15,558 nt of DNA from Candidatus Methylomirabilota bacterium (GCA_046726415.1 JBKPAK010000113.1:1-15558), one strand, 5' to 3'; counted from the first letter of the stretch, positions 494-12,159 are shown. Made by a program: numbers and translations. The notes: generated from the sequence alone by a model not told the origin.

Positions 494-685
494 ATGGAAT
501 TCGTGAGACGCGTCCGGGAATTCGTCCAGGAGGTCCTCCTGGAGTTTCGCCGGGTGACTTGGCCCAGCCGCCAGGAGCTCATCAACTCCACGGTCGTGGT
601 CCTGGCGCTCACGGTGATCGTCGCCTTTTTCTTGGGCGGAGTCGACATCGGTCTGTCGAAGATCGTGCAGAGGATCTTGCGGTGA
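494..685 (+). CDS. secE: Preprotein translocase subunit SecE (single-TM type, 63 aa)
   Basis: MEFVRRVREFVQEVLLEFRRVTWPSRQELINSTVVV...: conserved (K/R)VTWP motif followed by one hydrophobic helix. Start moved to ATG 494 because the track start at 431 lies inside the tRNA. Confidence 0.96.
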   Translation: MEFVRRVREFVQEVLLEFRRVTWPSRQELINSTVVVLALTVIVAFFLGGVDIGLSKIVQRILR

Positions 686-1230
686 GCAGTCACACGACCG
701 CGAACAAGCAGTGGTTCGTCGTGCACACCTATTCGGGTTTCGAGAACAAGGTGGCGGAAGGTATCGTGTCCCGCGCCAAGATCTTCGGCATGGGTGAGCG
801 GATCACCCGCGTGTTGGTGCCCACCGAGAAGGTGGTCGAGGTCCGGAACAAGCAGAAGCGCGAAAGCGAGCAAAAGTTCTTCCCCGGTTACGTCCTGGTC
901 GAGATGGAGCTGGCCGACGACACGTGGCACCTGGTGCGCTCGACGCCCAAGGTCACCGGCTTCGTGGGTTCGGGGACCAAGCCGGTGCCGCTGGAGCCCG
1001 ACCAGGTGGACGAGATCATGCGCCAGATGGAGGCGGGGGCGGAGAAGCCGAAGCCCAAGTCGGTGTTCCAACGCGGTGACAAGGTGCGCGTCATCGACGG
1101 CCCCTTCGTCAACTTCCAGGGCGTGGTGGACGACATGAACCCGGAGCGAGGGCGCATGAAGGTGGTGGTGCCGGTCTTCGGGCGGCCCACGCCAGTGGAA
1201 TTGGAGTACTACCAAGTGGAGCGACTCTAG
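682..1230 (+). CDS. nusG: Transcription termination/antitermination factor NusG (182 aa)
   Basis: WFVVHTYSGFENKV, FFPGYVLVEM, TPKVTGFVG, KOW motif GDKVRVIDGPF and FGRPTPVEL. The GTG start at 682 overlaps the secE stop (GTGA), with AGAGGA upstream. Confidence 0.97.
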   Translation: MSSHTTANKQWFVVHTYSGFENKVAEGIVSRAKIFGMGERITRVLVPTEKVVEVRNKQKRESEQKFFPGYVLVEMELADDTWHLVRSTPKVTGFVGSGTKPVPLEPDQVDEIMRQMEAGAEKPKPKSVFQRGDKVRVIDGPFVNFQGVVDDMNPERGRMKVVVPVFGRPTPVELEYYQVERL

Positions 1231-1270
1231 ATGGCGACGTGCGACCGAGTGGAGCGACTCTAGATGGCGA
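1211..1270 (+). repeat. Direct repeat duplicating the nusG stop / rplK start junction (period 33 nt)
   Basis: AGTGGAGCGACTCTAGATGGCGA is exact at 1215-1237 and 1248-1270 (23 nt; 27 nt with one mismatch from 1211/1244). Confidence 0.95.
1231..1263 (+). CDS. Putative 10-aa mini-ORF MATCDRVERL created by the junction duplication
   Basis: ATG directly after the nusG TAG; its TAG directly precedes the rplK ATG; same GGAG and 9-nt spacing as rplK. Translation is unproven. Confidence 0.35.
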   Translation: MATCDRVERL

Positions 1271-1686
1271 AGAAGGTCCAGGCGATGGTGAAGTTGCAGA
1301 TCTCGGCCGGCAAGGCGAACCCGTCGCCGCCGGTGGGGCCCGCGCTTGGCCAGCACGGCGTCAACATCATGGAGTTCTGCAAGGGATTCAACGCGCAGAC
1401 CAGCAGTCAGGAGGGCCTCATCCTCCCCGTGGTGGTGACAATCTACCAGGATCGATCCTTCACCTTCGTGATCAAGACGCCGCCGGCAGCGATCCTTCTG
1501 AAGCGAGCGGCCGGCATCGCCAAGGCTTCCGCGGTGCCACACCGGGACAAGATCGGCAAGGTGACGAGACAGCAGGTCCGCGAGATCGCCCAGCAGAAGC
1601 TCGTCGATCTCAACACCGACTCGGTGGACGCGGCCATGCGCATCGTCGAGGGAACCGCCCGCAGCATGGGCATCGACGTGGTGTAG
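1264..1686 (+). CDS. rplK: 50S ribosomal protein L11
   Basis: MAKKV...[31 protein letters not shown]...KTPPAA...GTARSMGI, canonical L11. Confidence 0.99.
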
Positions 1687-1771
1687 CGAGCCGCAGGACG
1701 GCGCGGGGCTGGGGCCCCGCCGTCCGAGGCGAGCCGAGAAGATGGTGTAGCGAGCCGCAGGACGGCGAGCC
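1679..1771 (+). repeat. 25-nt direct repeat of the rplK stop region flanking a hairpin (period 64 nt)
   Basis: TGGTGTAGCGAGCCGCAGGACGGCG is exact at 1679-1703 and 1743-1767; hairpin at 1696-1725; GCGAGCC occurs four times (1686, 1729, 1750, 1765). Confidence 0.93.
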
Positions 1772-1796
1772 AAGAGAATAGTTGAGGAGAGTCGAT

Positions 1797-2507
1797 ATGG
1801 CGCCGGTGGTGAGCAAGCGGTACGACGCGGCGGCGAGCAAGATCGAGAGGGAGCGCCACTATACGGTCGAGGAGGCGATCGAAGTCGTCAAGCAGATACC
1901 GTCGGCCAAGTTCGACGAGTCGGTGGATCTGTCCTTTCGGCTGGGAGTGGATCCCAAGCACGCCGACCAAATGGTGCGCGGCGCGGTCGTCCTTCCCCAT
2001 GGGCGGGGGCGGACTGTGCGGGTCGCCGTGTTTGCCAAAGGCGAGAAAGAGCGCGAAGCGCGCGAGGCGGGCGCCGATGTGGTGGGGGCGGAGGACCTCG
2101 TGGAGCGCATCCAGGGCGGCTGGATGGAGTTCGACACCGCCGTGGCCACCCCGGACCTCATGGGGCAGGTAGGCCGCCTCGGCAAGGTGCTCGGGCCGCG
2201 CGGGCTCATGCCGAACCCCAAGCTCGGCACGGTCACCTTCGACGTGGGACGTGCGGTGCGCGAGGCAAAAGCGGGCAAGGTGGAATTTCGCGTCGACAAG
2301 GCCGGCAACGTGCATGTCTCGGTGGGCCGGCGGTCGTTCGGTCCGGAGCAGCTCGCGGCCAACGCCATGACGGTGATCGAGTCGATCATGCGCGCGAAGC
2401 CGGCGGCATCGAAGGGGACGTATCTCCGGTCGCTGACTGTGTCTACCACGATGGGTCCGGGCATCCAGCTCGACGCCCAGCGCATCGCCAATCAGTTCAA
2501 GAAGTAG
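1797..2507 (+). CDS. rplA: 50S ribosomal protein L1 (236 aa)
   Basis: [55 protein letters not shown] 1797 chosen because of GAGGAG at 1784-1789. Confidence 0.98.
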
Positions 2508-2526
2508 TGGGGCGAGGAGCGGAACT

Positions 2527-3051
2527 GTGCCGACGCAAGAGAAGGTCACGGCGATCGAGGATCTCAAGACGCGGCTCGAGGGCGTCAACTCGGTGTTTCT
2601 CACCGAGTACCGCGGCCTCACTGTGCAACAGCTGTCGGAGCTGCGCAAGCAGCTGCGCGCGGTGTCGGCGGAGTACAAGGTGGTGAAGAACCGGCTGGCG
2701 CGGATTGCCGTGTCGTCATCGGATCTGGCCGCCATCGCTGCGCATCTCACTGGGCCCACTGGCTTCATCATCGCCCGCGACGAGCCGGTGGCGGTGGCCA
2801 AGGCGCTGCAGACCTTTACCCGAACCGTTCCCGCCCTTGCCATCAAGGCCGGCTTCGTCGAGGGCCAGATGCTCGGCCCTGACGATATGAAGGCGCTCGC
2901 CGATCTGCCTCCGAAACCGGCGCTGCGCAGCCAGCTGGTCGGCGCCGTCCAGGGTCCGCTGGCTCAGCTCGTCGGCCTCTTGGAGCGCGTGCAGAGCGAC
3001 CTCGTCTACGTCCTCGAGCAGCGGGGCAAGGGCGCGACCGAGGAGTCCTAG
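2527..3051 (+). CDS. rplJ: 50S ribosomal protein L10
   Basis: [38 protein letters not shown] start with GAGGAG at 2514-2519; synteny. Confidence 0.97.
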
Positions 3052-3077
3052 AACGTCAGCAGAAAGGAGCCCGTTCC

Positions 3078-3464
3078 ATGGCAAGCGTTGAGGAGATCGC
3101 GGAACAGCTCGACAACCTGAGCCTGCGCGAAGCCGCTCAGCTCTCTAAGTTGCTTCAAGAGAAGTGGGGAGTGACGGCGGCGGCTCCCATGGCCGTGGCG
3201 GCCATGCCCGGGATGCCGGGCGCGGGAGCCGGCGCACCGGTGGTCGAGGAGCAGACGGAGTTCGACGTCATCCTGTCGGCCGCCGGCGACAAGAAGATCC
3301 AGGTTATCAAGGTCGTCCGCGAGCTGACCGGACTGGGACTCAAGGAGGCCAAGGATCTCGTGGACGGCGCCCCCAAGGCGGTGAAGGAGAAGGTGACCAA
3401 GGCGGAAGCCGAGGACATGAAGAAGAAGCTCGAGGAGCAGGGAGCGGCCGTCCAGGTGAAATAG
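3078..3464 (+). CDS. rplL: 50S ribosomal protein L7/L12
   Basis: Ala/Gly/Pro hinge followed by [49 protein letters not shown]. Confidence 0.99.
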
Positions 3465-3519
3465 TCGGAGGGCCTCGACGGCCTCCTTCAAGCTCCCGAT
3501 TTTGCGCGAGGTGCCACAG

Positions 3520-3585
3520 GGCACGCCGGCCCGGCCGGCGTGCCAGGGGCGACAGACTCTGGTGAGGGCGGAGTGAGCGCCCTCA
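3520..3585 (+). promoter_or_regulatory. Structured rplL-rpoB spacer: two hairpins ahead of the rpoB ribosome-binding site
   Basis: GGCACGCCGGCC-c-GGCCGGCGTGCC (3520-3544) and TGAGGGCG-gagtgag-CGCCCTCA (3563-3585), the latter abutting SD AGGAGA (3585-3590). Function is inferred. Confidence 0.5.
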
Positions 3586-3594
3586 GGAGAATAT

Positions 3595-7602
<4,008 letters not shown>

Positions 7603-7926
7603 ATGGAGGCACGTGCAGCAGACATGAGGCCCCGGATGAGAATGGGCATGACCGAGCCACGCGCGCCTCGGACAGCCCATCTGCGGTCCGAACTGACCTC
7701 ACGGCACCCGCGACAAACGGAGCCACGGGTACCTGGAGCGGCCCACCCGCGGTCTGAACCGGGCACCCGGCACCCGCGACAAACGCTGCCACGGGTACCT
7801 GGAGCGGCCCACCCGCGGTCTGAACCGGGCACCCGGCACCCGCGACAAGCGCTGCCACGGGTACCTAGAGCGGCCCACCCGCGGTCTGAACCGGGCACCC
7901 GGCACCCGCTACAAAGGAGAGTGTGA
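7603..7926 (+). CDS. Hypothetical 107-aa Arg/Pro/His-rich tandem-repeat ORF filling the rpoB-rpoC gap
   Basis: ATG immediately after the rpoB TGA and TGA immediately before the rpoC ATG, in the same frame; four 22-aa repeats. Atypical A/T-ending codons and no recognisable domain. Confidence 0.4.
   Translation: MEARAADMRPRMRMGMTEPRAPRTAHLRSELTSRHPRQTEPRVPGAAHPRSEPGTRHPRQTLPRVPGAAHPRSEPGTRHPRQALPRVPRAAHPRSEPGTRHPLQRRV
7651..7914 (+). repeat. Tandem repeat (VNTR-like), 4 x 66 nt
   Basis: Units start at 7651, 7717, 7783 and 7849. By manual count, unit 2 vs 3 has 2 differences, unit 3 vs 4 has 3, and unit 1 vs 2 has 16; no indels and no spacers. Confidence 0.97.
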
Positions 7927-10900
7927 ATGCTGACGGATCGGCCATTCGGCAGCCTGATCAGAGAGGAGAAGCCGTCCCGCGATCTGTGGGGCATCCTCGA
8001 TCGGCATGCGAAGCCCATCACGTTCGACTCCATCCGCATCAAGCTCGCCTCGCCCCAGAAGATTCGCGACTGGTCCCACGGCGAGGTGAAGAAACCGGAG
8101 ACCATCAACTACCGAACGTTCAAGCCGGAACGCGACGGTCTGTTCTGTGCGCGCATCTTCGGGCCGACCAAGGATTACGAATGCGCCTGTGGCAAGTACA
8201 AGCGCATGAAATTCGCGGGGGTGGTGTGCGACAAGTGCGGGGTGGAAGTGACGCGGGCCCGGGTGCGCCGCGAGCGGATGGGGCACATCGAGCTGGCCTC
8301 CCCAGTGTCACACGTGTGGTTCTTCAAAGGGCTGCCTAGCCGCATCGGCCAGCTCCTGGACATGTCCCTGCGGGATCTGGAGAAGATCCTCTACTTCGAG
8401 GAGTATGTCGTTCTCGATTCGCGCATCAACGGGGTCAAGAAGCGGGATCTGGTCTCCGTCGACCGGATGCGGAAGCTCCAGGATGAACACGGTCCAGACG
8501 CCCTCAAGGTGGGGATGGGCGCCGAAGCCATTCGGGAGCTGCTGCGCGACCTCGACCTCGACGGCCTCGCTCGCGATCTGCGGGCGCAGATGCTGGGCGA
8601 GACCTCCGTCCAGAAGCGCAAGAAGATCGTCAAGCGACTGAAGGTGGTGGAGGCCTTTCTCAAGTCGGGCAACCAGCCGGACTGGATGATCCTCGAGGTC
8701 GTCCCGGTGATTCCCCCCGAGCTGCGTCCCCTGGTGCCGCTCGACGGGGGGCGCTTCGCCACCTCAGACCTCAACGACCTCTACCGCCGCGTCATCAACC
8801 GGAACAACCGGCTGAAGCGGCTGATCGATCTCAAGGCCCCGGAGATCATCATCCGCAACGAGAAGCGCATGTTGCAGGAAGCCGTCGACGCCCTCTTCGA
8901 CAACGGGCGGCGCGGCCGGGTGATCACCGGACCTAACAATCGCCCCCTCAAGTCCCTGTCCGACACCCTCAAGGGCAAGCAGGGGCGGTTCCGGCAGAAT
9001 CTGTTGGGCAAGCGCGTCGATTACTCCGGGCGCTCGGTGATCGTGGTCGGTCCCTACCTCAAGCTGCACCAGTGCGGGTTGCCCAAGAAGATGGCCCTGG
9101 AGCTGTTCAAACCCTTCATCCTGCGCAAGCTCGAGGATCGCGGCATCGCCTCCTCCATCAAGGCGGCCAAGAAGTACGTGGAGAAAGAGCGGCCGGAAGT
9201 GTGGGACATCCTCGAGGACGTGATCAAGGAGCACCCGGTCCTCCTCAACCGGGCCCCCACCCTCCACCGCTTGGGCATCCAGGCGTTCGAGCCCATTCTG
9301 GTGGAAGGCAAGGCCATCGAGATCCATCCCCTCGTGTGTACGGCCTTCAACGCCGATTTTGACGGCGACCAGATGGCCGTCCACGTGCCGCTCTCCATGG
9401 AGGCCCAGCTGGAGGCCCAGTGCCTCATGCTGTCGGCCAACAACATCTTGTCCCCCTCGAACGGGGCCCCGCTGGCCGTGCCCACCCAGGACATGGTGCT
9501 GGGGATCTACTACCTGACCAAAGAGCGCCTGAGCTCTCCCGAGCATCCGGTGCGCGGCGAGGGTCGACTCTTCGCCGACGCCGAGGAAGTTCGGGTGGCC
9601 TACGACAACGAGGATGTCGATCTCCAAGCCCGCATGCGCGTGCGCTGGAATGGCACGACCATCGAGACCACGGTGGGGCGGACCCTCTTGAACGAGATCG
9701 TCCCCGAATCGCTGCGCTTCGTGAACCAGGAATTGAAGAAGAAGCAGATCACGGATCTGGTGGCGCGGTGCTACAACAGCCTCGGCAACGAAGCGACGGT
9801 GGCGTTCCTCGACGAGCTCAAGGACATCGGGTTCCGCTACGCGACCCTGTCCGGACTCAGCATCGGCATCGACGACATGCACGTGCCTCCCGCCAAGGAG
9901 CGGCACATCAGCGGTGCCCGGCGCGAGGTCAACGAGGTCGAGCAGCAGTACCAGGACGGCGTGATCACCAACGGCGAGCGCTATAACAAAGTGGTTGACA
10001 TCTGGGCCCACGCCACCGAGTTGATCGCCGAGGACATGTTCCGCGATCTGGAGGCGGGCGAGCAGGGCGGGGAGTTCAACCCCATCTACATGATGGCCGA
10101 CTCCGGGGCCCGCGGCTCCAAACAGCAAATCCGACAGCTCGCTGGCATGCGCGGGCTCATGGCCAAGCCATCGGGGGAGATCATCGAGACTCCCATCACC
10201 TCGAACTTCCGCGAGGGGCTCACCGTGCTGGAGTACTTCACCTCCACCCATGGCGCCCGCAAAGGGCTGGCCGACACCGCGCTGAAGACGGCGGACTCCG
10301 GCTACCTCACCCGGCGGCTGGTCGACGTGGCCCAGGACGTCATCGTCAGCGAGTACGACTGCGGCACCGTGAAGTTCATCGAGGCCACCCCCCTGGTCGA
10401 GGGTGGCGAAATCATCCAGTCCCTCCGCGACCGCATCCTGGGCCGAGTGACGGCGGAGGACGTTCGCGATCCGCTCACCGGCGAGATCATCGTGCAGGCC
10501 AACAACGAGGTCACCGAGGAGCTGGCCCAGAAGATCGAGGAGACGGGGCTGGAGCGCGTGCGCATCCGGTCGGCCCTCACCTGCGACACCAAGCGCGGCA
10601 TCTGCGTCATGTGTTACGGACGCAACCTGGGCTCGGGCCGTCTGGCCGAGCTCGGTGAGGCGGTGGGCATCATTGCCGCCCAGTCCATCGGAGAGCCGGG
10701 GACGCAGCTCACCATGCGGACCTTCCACATCGGCGGGACGGCCAGCGGTCGCGTCGAAACCAAGCACGAAGCCAAGAACGCCGGGACGGTCAAGCACCAC
10801 AACCTGCGCACGGTGGTGAATCGCGACGGCGACCTGGTGGCCACCAACCGCAACGGCGAGATCATCGTGATGGATGACCGAGGGCGCGAACGCGAGCGCT

Positions 10901-12159
10901 ATCCCGTCGTGTACGGCGCCAAGATCAAGGTCAAGCCCGAGCAGCGAGTGAAGGCGGGGACGGTGCTGGTGGAGTGGGATCCCCACACCACCCCCATCCT
11001 CACGGAATTCACGGGCAGCGCGCAGTACGTGGACATTGTCGAGGAGCGGGAGGCCCAGGAGGCGGCCAAACGCGGAGAGGCCGTCAGCGCCACCGTTCGC
11101 GAAGAGATCGACGAGGTCACCGGCCTCGCGCGTAAAGTGATCATCGAAGATCCCAACGCGCGCTTGCAGCCGGGCATCGTCATCCTGGCCCCCGACGGCG
11201 AACGCACGAGCGGTCCTCGCGAGCGTCAGCGCTACCCGCTGCCGGTGGGCGCCCACCTGCTGGTGGCGGACGGCCAAGACCTCTTCGCCGCGGACATCAT
11301 TGCCAAGATCCCGCGGGAAACCACGAAGACCAAGGACATCACCGGTGGTCTGCCGCGGGTGGCCGAGCTGTTCGAGGCCCGCAAACCCAAGGAGCAGGCC
11401 ATCATCACTGAGATCGATGGGCGGGTGGAGATGGGTGGCTTCGTCAAGGGCCAGCGGAAGATCATCATCCGCGCCGACAACGGCGAGGCCAAGGAGTATC
11501 TCATCCCGCGGGGCAAGCACATCAGCGTGCACGAGGGAGACCGCGTCAAGGCCGGCGAGGCTTTGATGGACGGGTCGCCCAATCCCCATGACTACCTGGC
11601 CGTGCTGGGGGATCGCGAGTTGCAGCGATATCTCGTGAACGAGGTGCAGGAGGTCTACCGCCTGCAGGGCGTCACCATCAACGACAAGCACATCGAGATC
11701 ATCGTGCGCCAGATGCTGCGGCGCGTGCGCATCGAGGAAGTGGGCGACACCGACTTCGTAGTCGGAGAACTGGTCGACAAGTTCGTCTTTCAAGAGGAGA
11801 ACGAGCGCGTGCTGAGCCAGGGCAAGCGGCCGGCCACCGCGCAGCCCATTCTGTTGGGGATCACCAAGGCATCTCTGAGCACCGATAGTTTCATTTCGGC
11901 GGCGTCCTTCCAGGAGACGACGCGGGTGCTCACCGAAGCCGCCATCTCCGGCAAGACGGACGAGCTGCGGGGGCTCAAGGAGAACGTCATCGTGGGTCGG
12001 CTCATCCCGGCGGGGACCGGGCTCAGCCATTACACCCGGGTCGAAGTCCTCACGCCCGGGGGCGAGGCCGTGAAACCGCTCGACCAGGTGCTGAGCCTGG
12101 AGCCACTCCCCGATGAGGTGGCCGACGGTGAAGACGGCTCCGTGGCGGCCGCCGTCTAG
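7927..12159 (+). CDS. rpoC: DNA-directed RNA polymerase beta' subunit (1410 aa)
   Basis: [13 protein letters not shown], Zn finger [12 protein letters not shown], catalytic NADFDGD (9349-9369), bridge helix [24 protein letters not shown], trigger loop [21 protein letters not shown] at 7914-7919. Confidence 0.99.

Follow-up and report, generated by a model that had tools for sequence, protein, structure and literature searches.

How did three junctions of a single operon come to carry extra DNA that repeats the stop codon context just upstream of it? This question is raised by a contig of 15,558 nt from Candidatus Methylomirabilota bacterium (GCA_046726415.1, JBKPAK010000113.1), here called the window, in which the gene pairs nusG/rplK, rplK/rplA and rpoB/rpoC are separated by inserts that we refer to as J1, J2 and J3, respectively. 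A first-pass annotation of this DNA had proposed that a mechanism, or a selective filter, generates coupling-preserving spacers with a start-to-stop open reading frame (ORF) at such junctions, similar to mycobacterial interspersed repetitive units (MIRUs). The observation itself is largely right and not due to chance, and the pattern combines one local duplication with two dispersed families of intercistronic repeats, termed A and B, that have expanded locally. In our preferred explanation, to which we assign a probability of about 0.72, the three inserts are independent local tandem amplifications whose junctions were re-created by geometry and selection, without any stop-anchored system. Most of the inserts are ordinary repeat biology; there is, in addition, one odd size rule.

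The geometric part follows from the position of the event. A duplication starting in the end of the upstream gene necessarily copies the stop codon, and one that also covers the downstream start necessarily gives rise to a start-to-stop mini-frame. In tightly packed essential operons, selection would then spare only junction-preserving events, and copy numbers may have been altered by slippage or unequal exchange. J1 would be a recent 33-nt tandem duplication of the nusG stop and rplK start, one of about 100 unrelated duplications of 32–36 nt in this genome. J2 would have begun as a dispersed family A copy right after the rplK stop, the unit of which was then duplicated along with 7–8 nt of rplK, with the second unit losing its hairpin, and J3 would be a dispersed family B unit amplified from one to about four copies. 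Family A most likely acts in mRNA, where a sense hairpin just upstream of the next ribosome-binding site might serve as a stabiliser, processing site or insulator.

The window is one complete contig (C113) of the genome studied (G000; 7.6 Mb, 352 contigs, 67.5% GC). Genome-wide counts were based on our own calls of 7273 genes, which reproduced the genes of the window, and comparisons were made with two genomes of the same genus (the congeners G001 and G002) and with further relatives, designated by other G numbers. For 62/6982 genes, 12 nt or more of the stop context were found again no further than 150 nt downstream, compared with 1/20,946 shuffles; start contexts were repeated upstream at 27/6741. 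Among comparison anchors, repeats were found at 11/5509 positions inside genes and 44/4046 positions lying 15 nt into intergenic gaps, which corresponds to 8.9 per 1000 anchors for stops versus 10.9 for intergenic positions. Hence, the repeats are far above chance, and stops are not special among non-coding positions. Because this frequency exceeds the shuffled null and empty sites exist as well (for J1 in both congeners, for J3 in most other genera), the pattern noticed in the first-pass annotation is real. Its unifying stop-anchored mechanism is not supported, given three different origins and stop anchors no richer than intergenic ones; the selective filter, offered as the alternative, is the part that holds.

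Origins of the three inserts and their repeat families

At the nusG/rplK junction, the two copies of the J1 duplication (Table 1) are identical at 29 of 32 positions with a start-to-start spacing of 33 nt, bearing out the reported 23-nt repeat and its flush, in-frame ATG-started ORF. The exact 23 nt include the nusG TAG and the rplK ATG, and the spacer consists of the copied first 7 nt of rplK and the copied last 26 nt of nusG. The 11-codon frame is a by-product, and its translation is putative. Of the two copies of the nusG codons, the one in the spacer bears all three mismatches, and the gene copy retains the conserved YYQ. The J1 sequence has no further copy in the G000 genome. Its site is empty in the congeners, with TAG then ATG in G001 and TAGCG then ATG in G002; one period is absent in each case (33 nt in G001, 31 nt in G002). 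A 170-nt contig of sequencing run X5, obtained with a different assembler, spans the junction (1164–1333) with 0 differences. Patterns built for J1 and for a second junction, C121, had 0 matches among the metagenome contigs of the Joint Genome Institute (JGI), a collection from which the organism may be absent. Besides that, the nusG–rplK spacer of the relative G015 (197 nt) contains an ATG frame flush with the nusG stop that resembles the KOW region at the NusG C-terminus, as if copied and since diverged, and reads like an older, larger junction-spanning duplication.

At rplK/rplA, the 25-nt repeat that had been described is exact, with a spacing of 64 nt, and the ORF assigned to it turned out to be trivial, consisting of ATG-GTG-TAG only (1741–1749). 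The repeat contains the rplK stop context and the 5′ end of the family A element, and a hairpin with 11-nt arms lies between the copies. The tails of the complete and the degenerate unit are alike (1728–1746 versus 1764–1782, 79% identical); a hairpin-less unit was also found on contig C112. The sequence on either side of J2, and that at the start of J3, is confirmed by contigs of runs X1, X2 and X4. Family A occupies the same position after rplK in G004, which belongs to another genus, and occurs there in degenerate form in G016, G024 and G007; the 31-nt rplK–rplA spacer of G002 is without it. Other sequences also occur at this junction: the G001 spacer (98 nt) has a different insert with two GC-rich hairpins in family A's place, and those of G009 (241 nt) and G018 (138 nt), which belong to other genera, hold other tandem repeats, the G009 units being ~78 nt long and each repeating the rplK stop context (GAGTAGATGTTCGAGCC).

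Family A is a GC-rich hairpin element of ~49 nt, represented in G000 by 34 nhmmer hits at 25 loci (33 BLAST hits with the J2 core). More than 111 exact matches to its pattern are present in public genomes, and nearly all of the matches listed are in metagenome-assembled genomes (MAGs) titled Candidatus Rokubacteria, Rokuibacteriota or Methylomirabilota, with few in other-named bins. On this basis, the organism belongs to the uncultured soil Rokubacteria. The element is shared by many relatives from the same family and order, with a patchy distribution among them: it is abundant in G000, G004, G010, G016, G024 and G035, is represented by 2 weak matches in 400 kb of G001 and gave 0 hits in 800 kb of G002. 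The BLAST counts for G004, G010, G016, G024 and G035 were obtained with a 901-nt query, include the orthologous gene region and are lower bounds. Arrays of family A have periods of 60–64 nt, not multiples of three, and spacers of 12–14 nt that are uniform within a locus, differ between loci and echo the local flank. Since the spacers are locus-specific and match the flank, the arrays grew locally after arrival.

As a general trend, family A precedes genes in the sense orientation. The downstream gene was co-oriented at 22/25 G000 loci, with a distance to the next start of 2–450 nt (median ~29 nt), and at 8/25 loci the element follows divergent neighbours. In other MAGs, 60 of 80 loci were co-oriented, 10 opposite and 10 not callable. 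Pairing in the 12-bp hairpin holds for 97.1% of cells, compared with 35–57% when the partner is slid; 4/12 pairs change on both sides, and 0/500 shuffles reach the observed values. One-sided changes on the sense strand yielded G·U in 13 cases and A·C in 2. Sense orientation upstream of genes, together with compensatory and G·U-biased changes, suggests a role at the RNA level. The RNA runs contained only 5–7% of the sampled words. The possibility that family A marks a regulon was rejected, as the 20 downstream genes scanned have diverse functions. One further array, at C30:20808-20980 in G000, comprises three tandem units between a tRNA gene and the start of a gene with an EF-Tu GTP-binding domain, at a contig end.

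At rpoB/rpoC, the flush open frame noted before was found, and the accompanying 6-nt repeat is merely TGAATG, that is stop plus start, at 7600–7605 and 7924–7929. The true feature is a 66-nt tandem repeat (3.2 copies at 7702–7915 according to Tandem Repeats Finder), the last unit of which terminates in the native CTACAAAGGAG ribosome-binding region. The per-codon score of the frame is −0.295 versus +0.35 to +0.42 for the neighbouring genes, and the frame's GC content at third codon positions is 0.64 versus 0.88 in genes; in G001 the frame is out of register, and in G002 it lacks an ATG. The exact unit has no other near-identical copy in G000. A single family B unit is located in the rpoB–rpoC spacers of G001, G002, G023 and G024, other genera of the same family that were examined have spacers of 16–53 nt, and another family of the order contains a different insert of ~150 nt. 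A contig of run X2 links 7602 to 7907 via 5 other letters and represents an insert-free form. Diverged family B copies (68–78% identical) occur elsewhere in G000 and in G004, G016, G019 and G024; the unpublished genome G011 gave hits as well, which are used for none of the conclusions. The family occupies three loci in G000, with 66-nt sense arrays also at C293:27720-28035 and at C281:26289-26559, the latter at a co-directional junction and with stops in all frames. The 316-nt array on C293 precedes a gene at 28036–29562 and leaves two frames open throughout, one ending in an ATGA overlap with the start; from their translations, the neighbours are probably atpH and atpA.

Pfam matches confirmed the single operon named in the first-pass annotation, with secE, nusG, rplK, rplA, rplJ, rplL, rpoB and rpoC all co-directional, and sequence comparison showed that J1, J2 and J3 have no sequence in common, as had likewise been remarked. 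A search of the whole window with the Rfam 15 covariance models at E up to 1 returned a tRNA at 384–457 as the sole match. The rplL–rpoB spacer (3465–3594, 130 nt) contains two GC-rich palindromes, read by eye at ~3474–3493 and ~3517–3547, which are possibly an attenuator or terminator.

Table 1 Genes, inserts and repeats of the window (all positions counted from its first nucleotide)
Feature	Position	Strand	Details
nusG (NusG + KOW)	685..1230	+	stop TAG 1228-1230; Pfam, orthologues
J1 33-nt tandem duplication across nusG stop and rplK start	1206..1270	+	copies 1206-1237 and 1239-1270
J1 spacer frame, 11 codons	1231..1263	+	ATG 1231 to TAG 1263; flush both sides; codon score -0.086 per codon
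rplK (L11)	1264..1686	+	stop TAG 1684-1686; Pfam
J2 local duplication	1679..1767	+	exact 25 nt at 1679-1703 and 1743-1767; period 64
J2 family A core	1686..1734	+	GCGAGCC-GCA-hairpin-GAG-GCGAGC; arms 1696-1709 and 1714-1725; first G is last base of rplK stop
J2 second, degenerate family A unit	1750..1781	+	without 28-nt hairpin part (GCGAGCCGCAGGACG joined to GCGAGCC); direct reading
rplA (L1)	1797..2507	+	preceded by GAGGAG 1784-1789; Pfam
rpoB	3595..7602	+	stop TGA 7600-7602; Pfam
J3 spacer, 107-codon open frame	7603..7926	+	flush with both genes; non-coding codon usage; no Pfam family
J3 family B array, about 4 units of 66 nt	7656..7915	+	units at 7656, 7722, 7788 and 7854 (last 62 nt)
rpoC	7927..12159	+	ribosome-binding site AAGGAG 7915-7920; Pfam

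Duplications of 32–36 nt in the genome

J1 is one member of a larger class, which became visible when local direct repeats were counted without regard to genes (identical stretch of 14 nt or more, offsets 8–300). Among the 471 loci in G000, 100 have a period of 32–36 nt (20, 38, 9, 18 and 15, respectively), and the neighbouring period windows hold 29 (27–31 nt) and 18 loci (37–41 nt). Half of the stop-anchored repeats (31/62) have a period of 32–35 nt. By position, 40 of the 100 loci are intergenic, 19 lie across a stop, 11 across stop and start, 10 across a start and 20 in coding DNA, so that non-coding or boundary DNA (1.14 Mb) accounts for 80 and coding DNA (6.47 Mb) for 20. The coding members have a period of 33 or 36 nt in 17/20 cases, and coding repeats of any period are divisible by three in 166/186. 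The loci mostly have ~2.0 copies with 0–3 mismatches, and clean two-copy events reach only 0–5 nt past one period, leaving little microhomology; many arrays have 3–6 copies with diverged copies. The 100 units fall into 97 sequence clusters spread over 77 contigs, the latter number matching chance. For periods of 28–40 nt, 9/140 loci had orthologous sites in the sampled DNA of the same genus, and at four of these nine (J1, C25:3107, C244:10180 and C92:9461) the genomes differ by one period.

A corresponding census covered parts of five relatives (2.4 Mb in total), for which assembly methods may differ. Here, the class made up 2/42 loci in 800 kb of G002 and, in 400 kb each, 2/21 in G001, 1/12 in G036, 1/44 in G024 and 0/21 in G007. 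Together these are 6/140 loci, leaving G000 about five times denser; its 13.1 class loci per Mb compare with 3.3 per Mb in the two congeners pooled (Poisson P ~5e-4). The sampled stretch of G002 (C19:1-800000) has a repeat mode of its own at 84–87 nt (11/42 local-repeat loci), and not at 32–36 nt.

Several sources for this size were considered and rejected. Cas1, as a possible 33-nt ruler, was not found in G000, G001, G002, G004 or G010. Loss of the PolA 5′ nuclease does not apply, as the nuclease is present, in relatives too, and Ku does not discriminate, being present in all five genomes checked. A type IIB restriction-site origin lacks a shared bipartite motif (at most 11/80 units), and a hidden dispersed 33-nt family is incompatible with 97 clusters among 100 units. 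Similarly, frameshift-split genes posing as junctions were dismissed: deleting one unit seldom fuses the flanking genes, with 5/80 flagged, mostly as test artefacts. We also observed a stand-alone LigD primase-polymerase gene in G000 (C217:17152-18006), located immediately after a copy of family A, as well as two Ku genes (C226:1006-1542 and C9:55401-55907); given these genes, end joining is probably available to the organism. In the literature, as far as its text was available, nothing relevant to a duplication size of ~33 bp was found.

Weighing the readings

Several observations weigh against explaining the inserts by ordinary local amplification and a selective filter. Slippage predicts neither the sharp 32–36-nt peak (100/471) nor the roughly five-fold excess over relatives, nor the scant microhomology that clean two-copy events seem to carry. 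In J1, the mismatches are confined to 9 nt and the other 23 nt are identical, a clustering that suggests constraint on the copy adjoining rplK. Under a loose definition, both-end coupling was counted at 184/2693 junctions, compared with a mean of 135 in 50 shuffles. Moreover, the nusG–rplK spacers of G004, G007, G016 and G023 hold short frames of 4 to 10 codons overlapping both neighbours: each opens on the nusG stop (TGATG) and closes on or next to the rplK start (ATGA, GTGA or TAGATG). These could reflect relay translation or be decayed old junction duplications; together with the loose-definition excess, they indicate that there may be some selection for relay translation. Concerning family A, the alignment was built from loci chosen by a pattern fixing most of the 3′ arm, so that conservation is overstated and the room for covariation limited, and the suggested RNA role is based on sequence patterns.

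One possible explanation for the first of these points could be that J1 and its class stem from a sequence-independent process with a molecular ruler of ~33 bp, active or recently active in this lineage. Candidates would be staggered breaks of ~33 bp that are filled and rejoined by Ku and LigD, or flaps of the size of a single-stranded DNA-binding protein (SSB) footprint. The sharp peak, the 97 clusters without a common motif on 77 contigs, the near-identical two-copy structure with little microhomology, the density in G000 and the presence of two Ku genes and a LigD primase-polymerase gene are all consistent with it. However, no enzyme for it was found, nor was Cas1, and the excess is not explained by Ku or the PolA 5′ nuclease, both of which relatives possess as well. 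The comparison also involves partly sampled relatives with perhaps differently assembled genomes, independent reads were checked within the class for J1 only, and two junction patterns had no match in the metagenome contig collection. We therefore regard such a process as possible but doubtful. Equally tentative is the broader proposal that duplications made by a 32–36-bp ruler, now or recently, survive only between genes and at gene edges, J1 being one of ~100, and that family A is an undescribed, order-wide sense mRNA hairpin upstream of ribosome-binding sites.

It is unlikely that the spacer frames are selected relay ORFs, which pass ribosomes from the upstream gene through the mini-frame to the downstream start. 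The J1 and J3 spacers join both neighbouring genes flush and in frame, and the loose-definition excess and the nusG–rplK mini-frames of four other genera would fit this idea. However, flush in-frame ATG-to-stop spacers were found at only 3/3066 junctions (J1, J3 and one on C68, where the spacer is 33 nt long), the codon usage of the J3 frame is that of non-coding DNA, the congeners do not conserve this frame, the periods of family A are not multiples of three, and one of the three family B arrays is stopped in all frames. This also leaves little of the earlier notion of a builder of coupling ORFs.

Quite improbable is a single mobile system, MIRU-like or of the type of repetitive extragenic palindromes (REPs) and their associated tyrosine transposases (RAYTs), that inserts at stop/start junctions, rebuilds them and made all three inserts. 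Families A and B are indeed dispersed, intercistronic and sense-oriented; family A is patchy, and some of its copies are 94–98% identical between genomes with an rplK region only ~75–83% identical. Some copies (e.g., on C217, C145 and C144) are bordered by short direct repeats of the target. Nevertheless, J1 contains no element sequence, A and B are unrelated, family A stops 2–450 nt short of the next start and follows divergent neighbours at a third of its loci (8/25), and target duplications are inconsistent among single-copy loci. The RAYT/TnpA-like transposase suggested in the first-pass annotation was likewise not found: the Y1/RAYT domain PF01797 had 0 matches in G000 (98% complete) and none in the element-rich G004, G007, G010, G016, G024, G033 and G035; 10/41 genomes matched, as did the control genomes.

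Finally, metagenome assembly artefacts are a very improbable source of the duplications: the period mode of 33 coincides with a common assembler k-mer size and the excess is peculiar to the G000 assembly, but the X5 contig from a different assembler spans J1 exactly, one-unit collapse does not fuse genes, and a technical origin of the class is opposed by its scarcity in coding DNA, periods that keep the frame within genes, arrays of 3–6 copies and divergence between copies; artefacts may still have contributed to the class.

Independent local amplification under selection is thus the reading we retain. It implies that junction-preserving inserts in essential operons can arise without dedicated machinery, and calls for caution when inferring 'systems' from MAG sequence. 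If true, the genome-specific duplication size of ~33 bp would be a new bacterial mutational signature and could indicate an unrecognised repair or replication step. Family A, with a hairpin conserved across an uncultured order, is a candidate for a general mRNA processing or stability signal in Rokubacteria. According to the part of PMC5712423 available to us, non-coding DNA makes up 8–17% in Rokubacteria, noted there without explanation; no description of the present repeats was found in the literature searched, that part of PMC5712423 included.

Comparison with known systems

The likeness to MIRUs proposed in the first-pass annotation stands as an analogy for J2 and J3, both members of tandem families that are dispersed, intercistronic and sense-oriented, and falls away for the coupling ORFs. 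Like MIRUs and the variable number tandem repeats (VNTRs) they form, J2 and J3 are 62–66-nt head-to-tail units between co-directional genes, and the copy number of J3 varies among close relatives (~4 versus 1). Their tandem units fall within the 40–100 bp typical between operon genes (J2 64 nt, J3 66 nt, family A 60–64 nt, family B 66 nt). Dispersal applies to A (25 loci) and B (3 loci), whereas J1 is unique. MIRUs insert at start codons and carry an internal ORF coupled at −4 nt (PMC12548453, text seen in part). In contrast, family A ends at a median of ~29 nt before the start with a period that is not a multiple of three, the J3 frame is unconserved, flush spacers number 3/3066, and the C281 array has stops in all frames.

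With REPs and the larger elements built from them, i.e. bacterial interspersed mosaic elements (BIMEs) and REP doublets forming hairpins (REPINs), family A shares the form of a short GC-rich extragenic hairpin in tens of copies that is probably transcribed. It differs in its head-to-tail arrangement: there are no inverted pairs and no mixed-strand locus, and all multi-copy loci are direct. Furthermore, its consensus is without a GTAG head, its hairpin is flanked by the direct repeat GCGAGCC, and it is conserved order-wide and not in one species. A particular resemblance exists to the CGTC REPs, as CGTC stands at the base of the inner stem of the family A consensus. In the accessible part of their description (Di Nocera et al. 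2013, PMC3733652), these elements have no dedicated transposase either, and they show stems of 8–9 bp with A-T as the first two pairs, a CCA tail and mostly head-to-head dimers. The G-C stem of family A, in contrast, comprises 12 bp and a 2-nt bulge, and the arrays are direct. A clustered regularly interspaced short palindromic repeat (CRISPR) array was rejected as well, with spacers identical within each family A array and no Cas1 in G000.

The closest parallel for J1 and its class is found in minisatellites and microhomology-mediated tandem duplications, as far as the available part of PMC8639346 describes them. These, too, are simple local duplications whose presence varies between close relatives and which are tolerated mainly outside genes; the class has a sharply defined size and appears to carry little microhomology at its flanks, neither of which microhomology-driven slippage would lead one to expect. 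As in simple VNTRs, copy numbers vary at the loci studied here, with two versus one at J1, ~4 versus one at J3 and a difference of one period at 4/9 orthologous loci.

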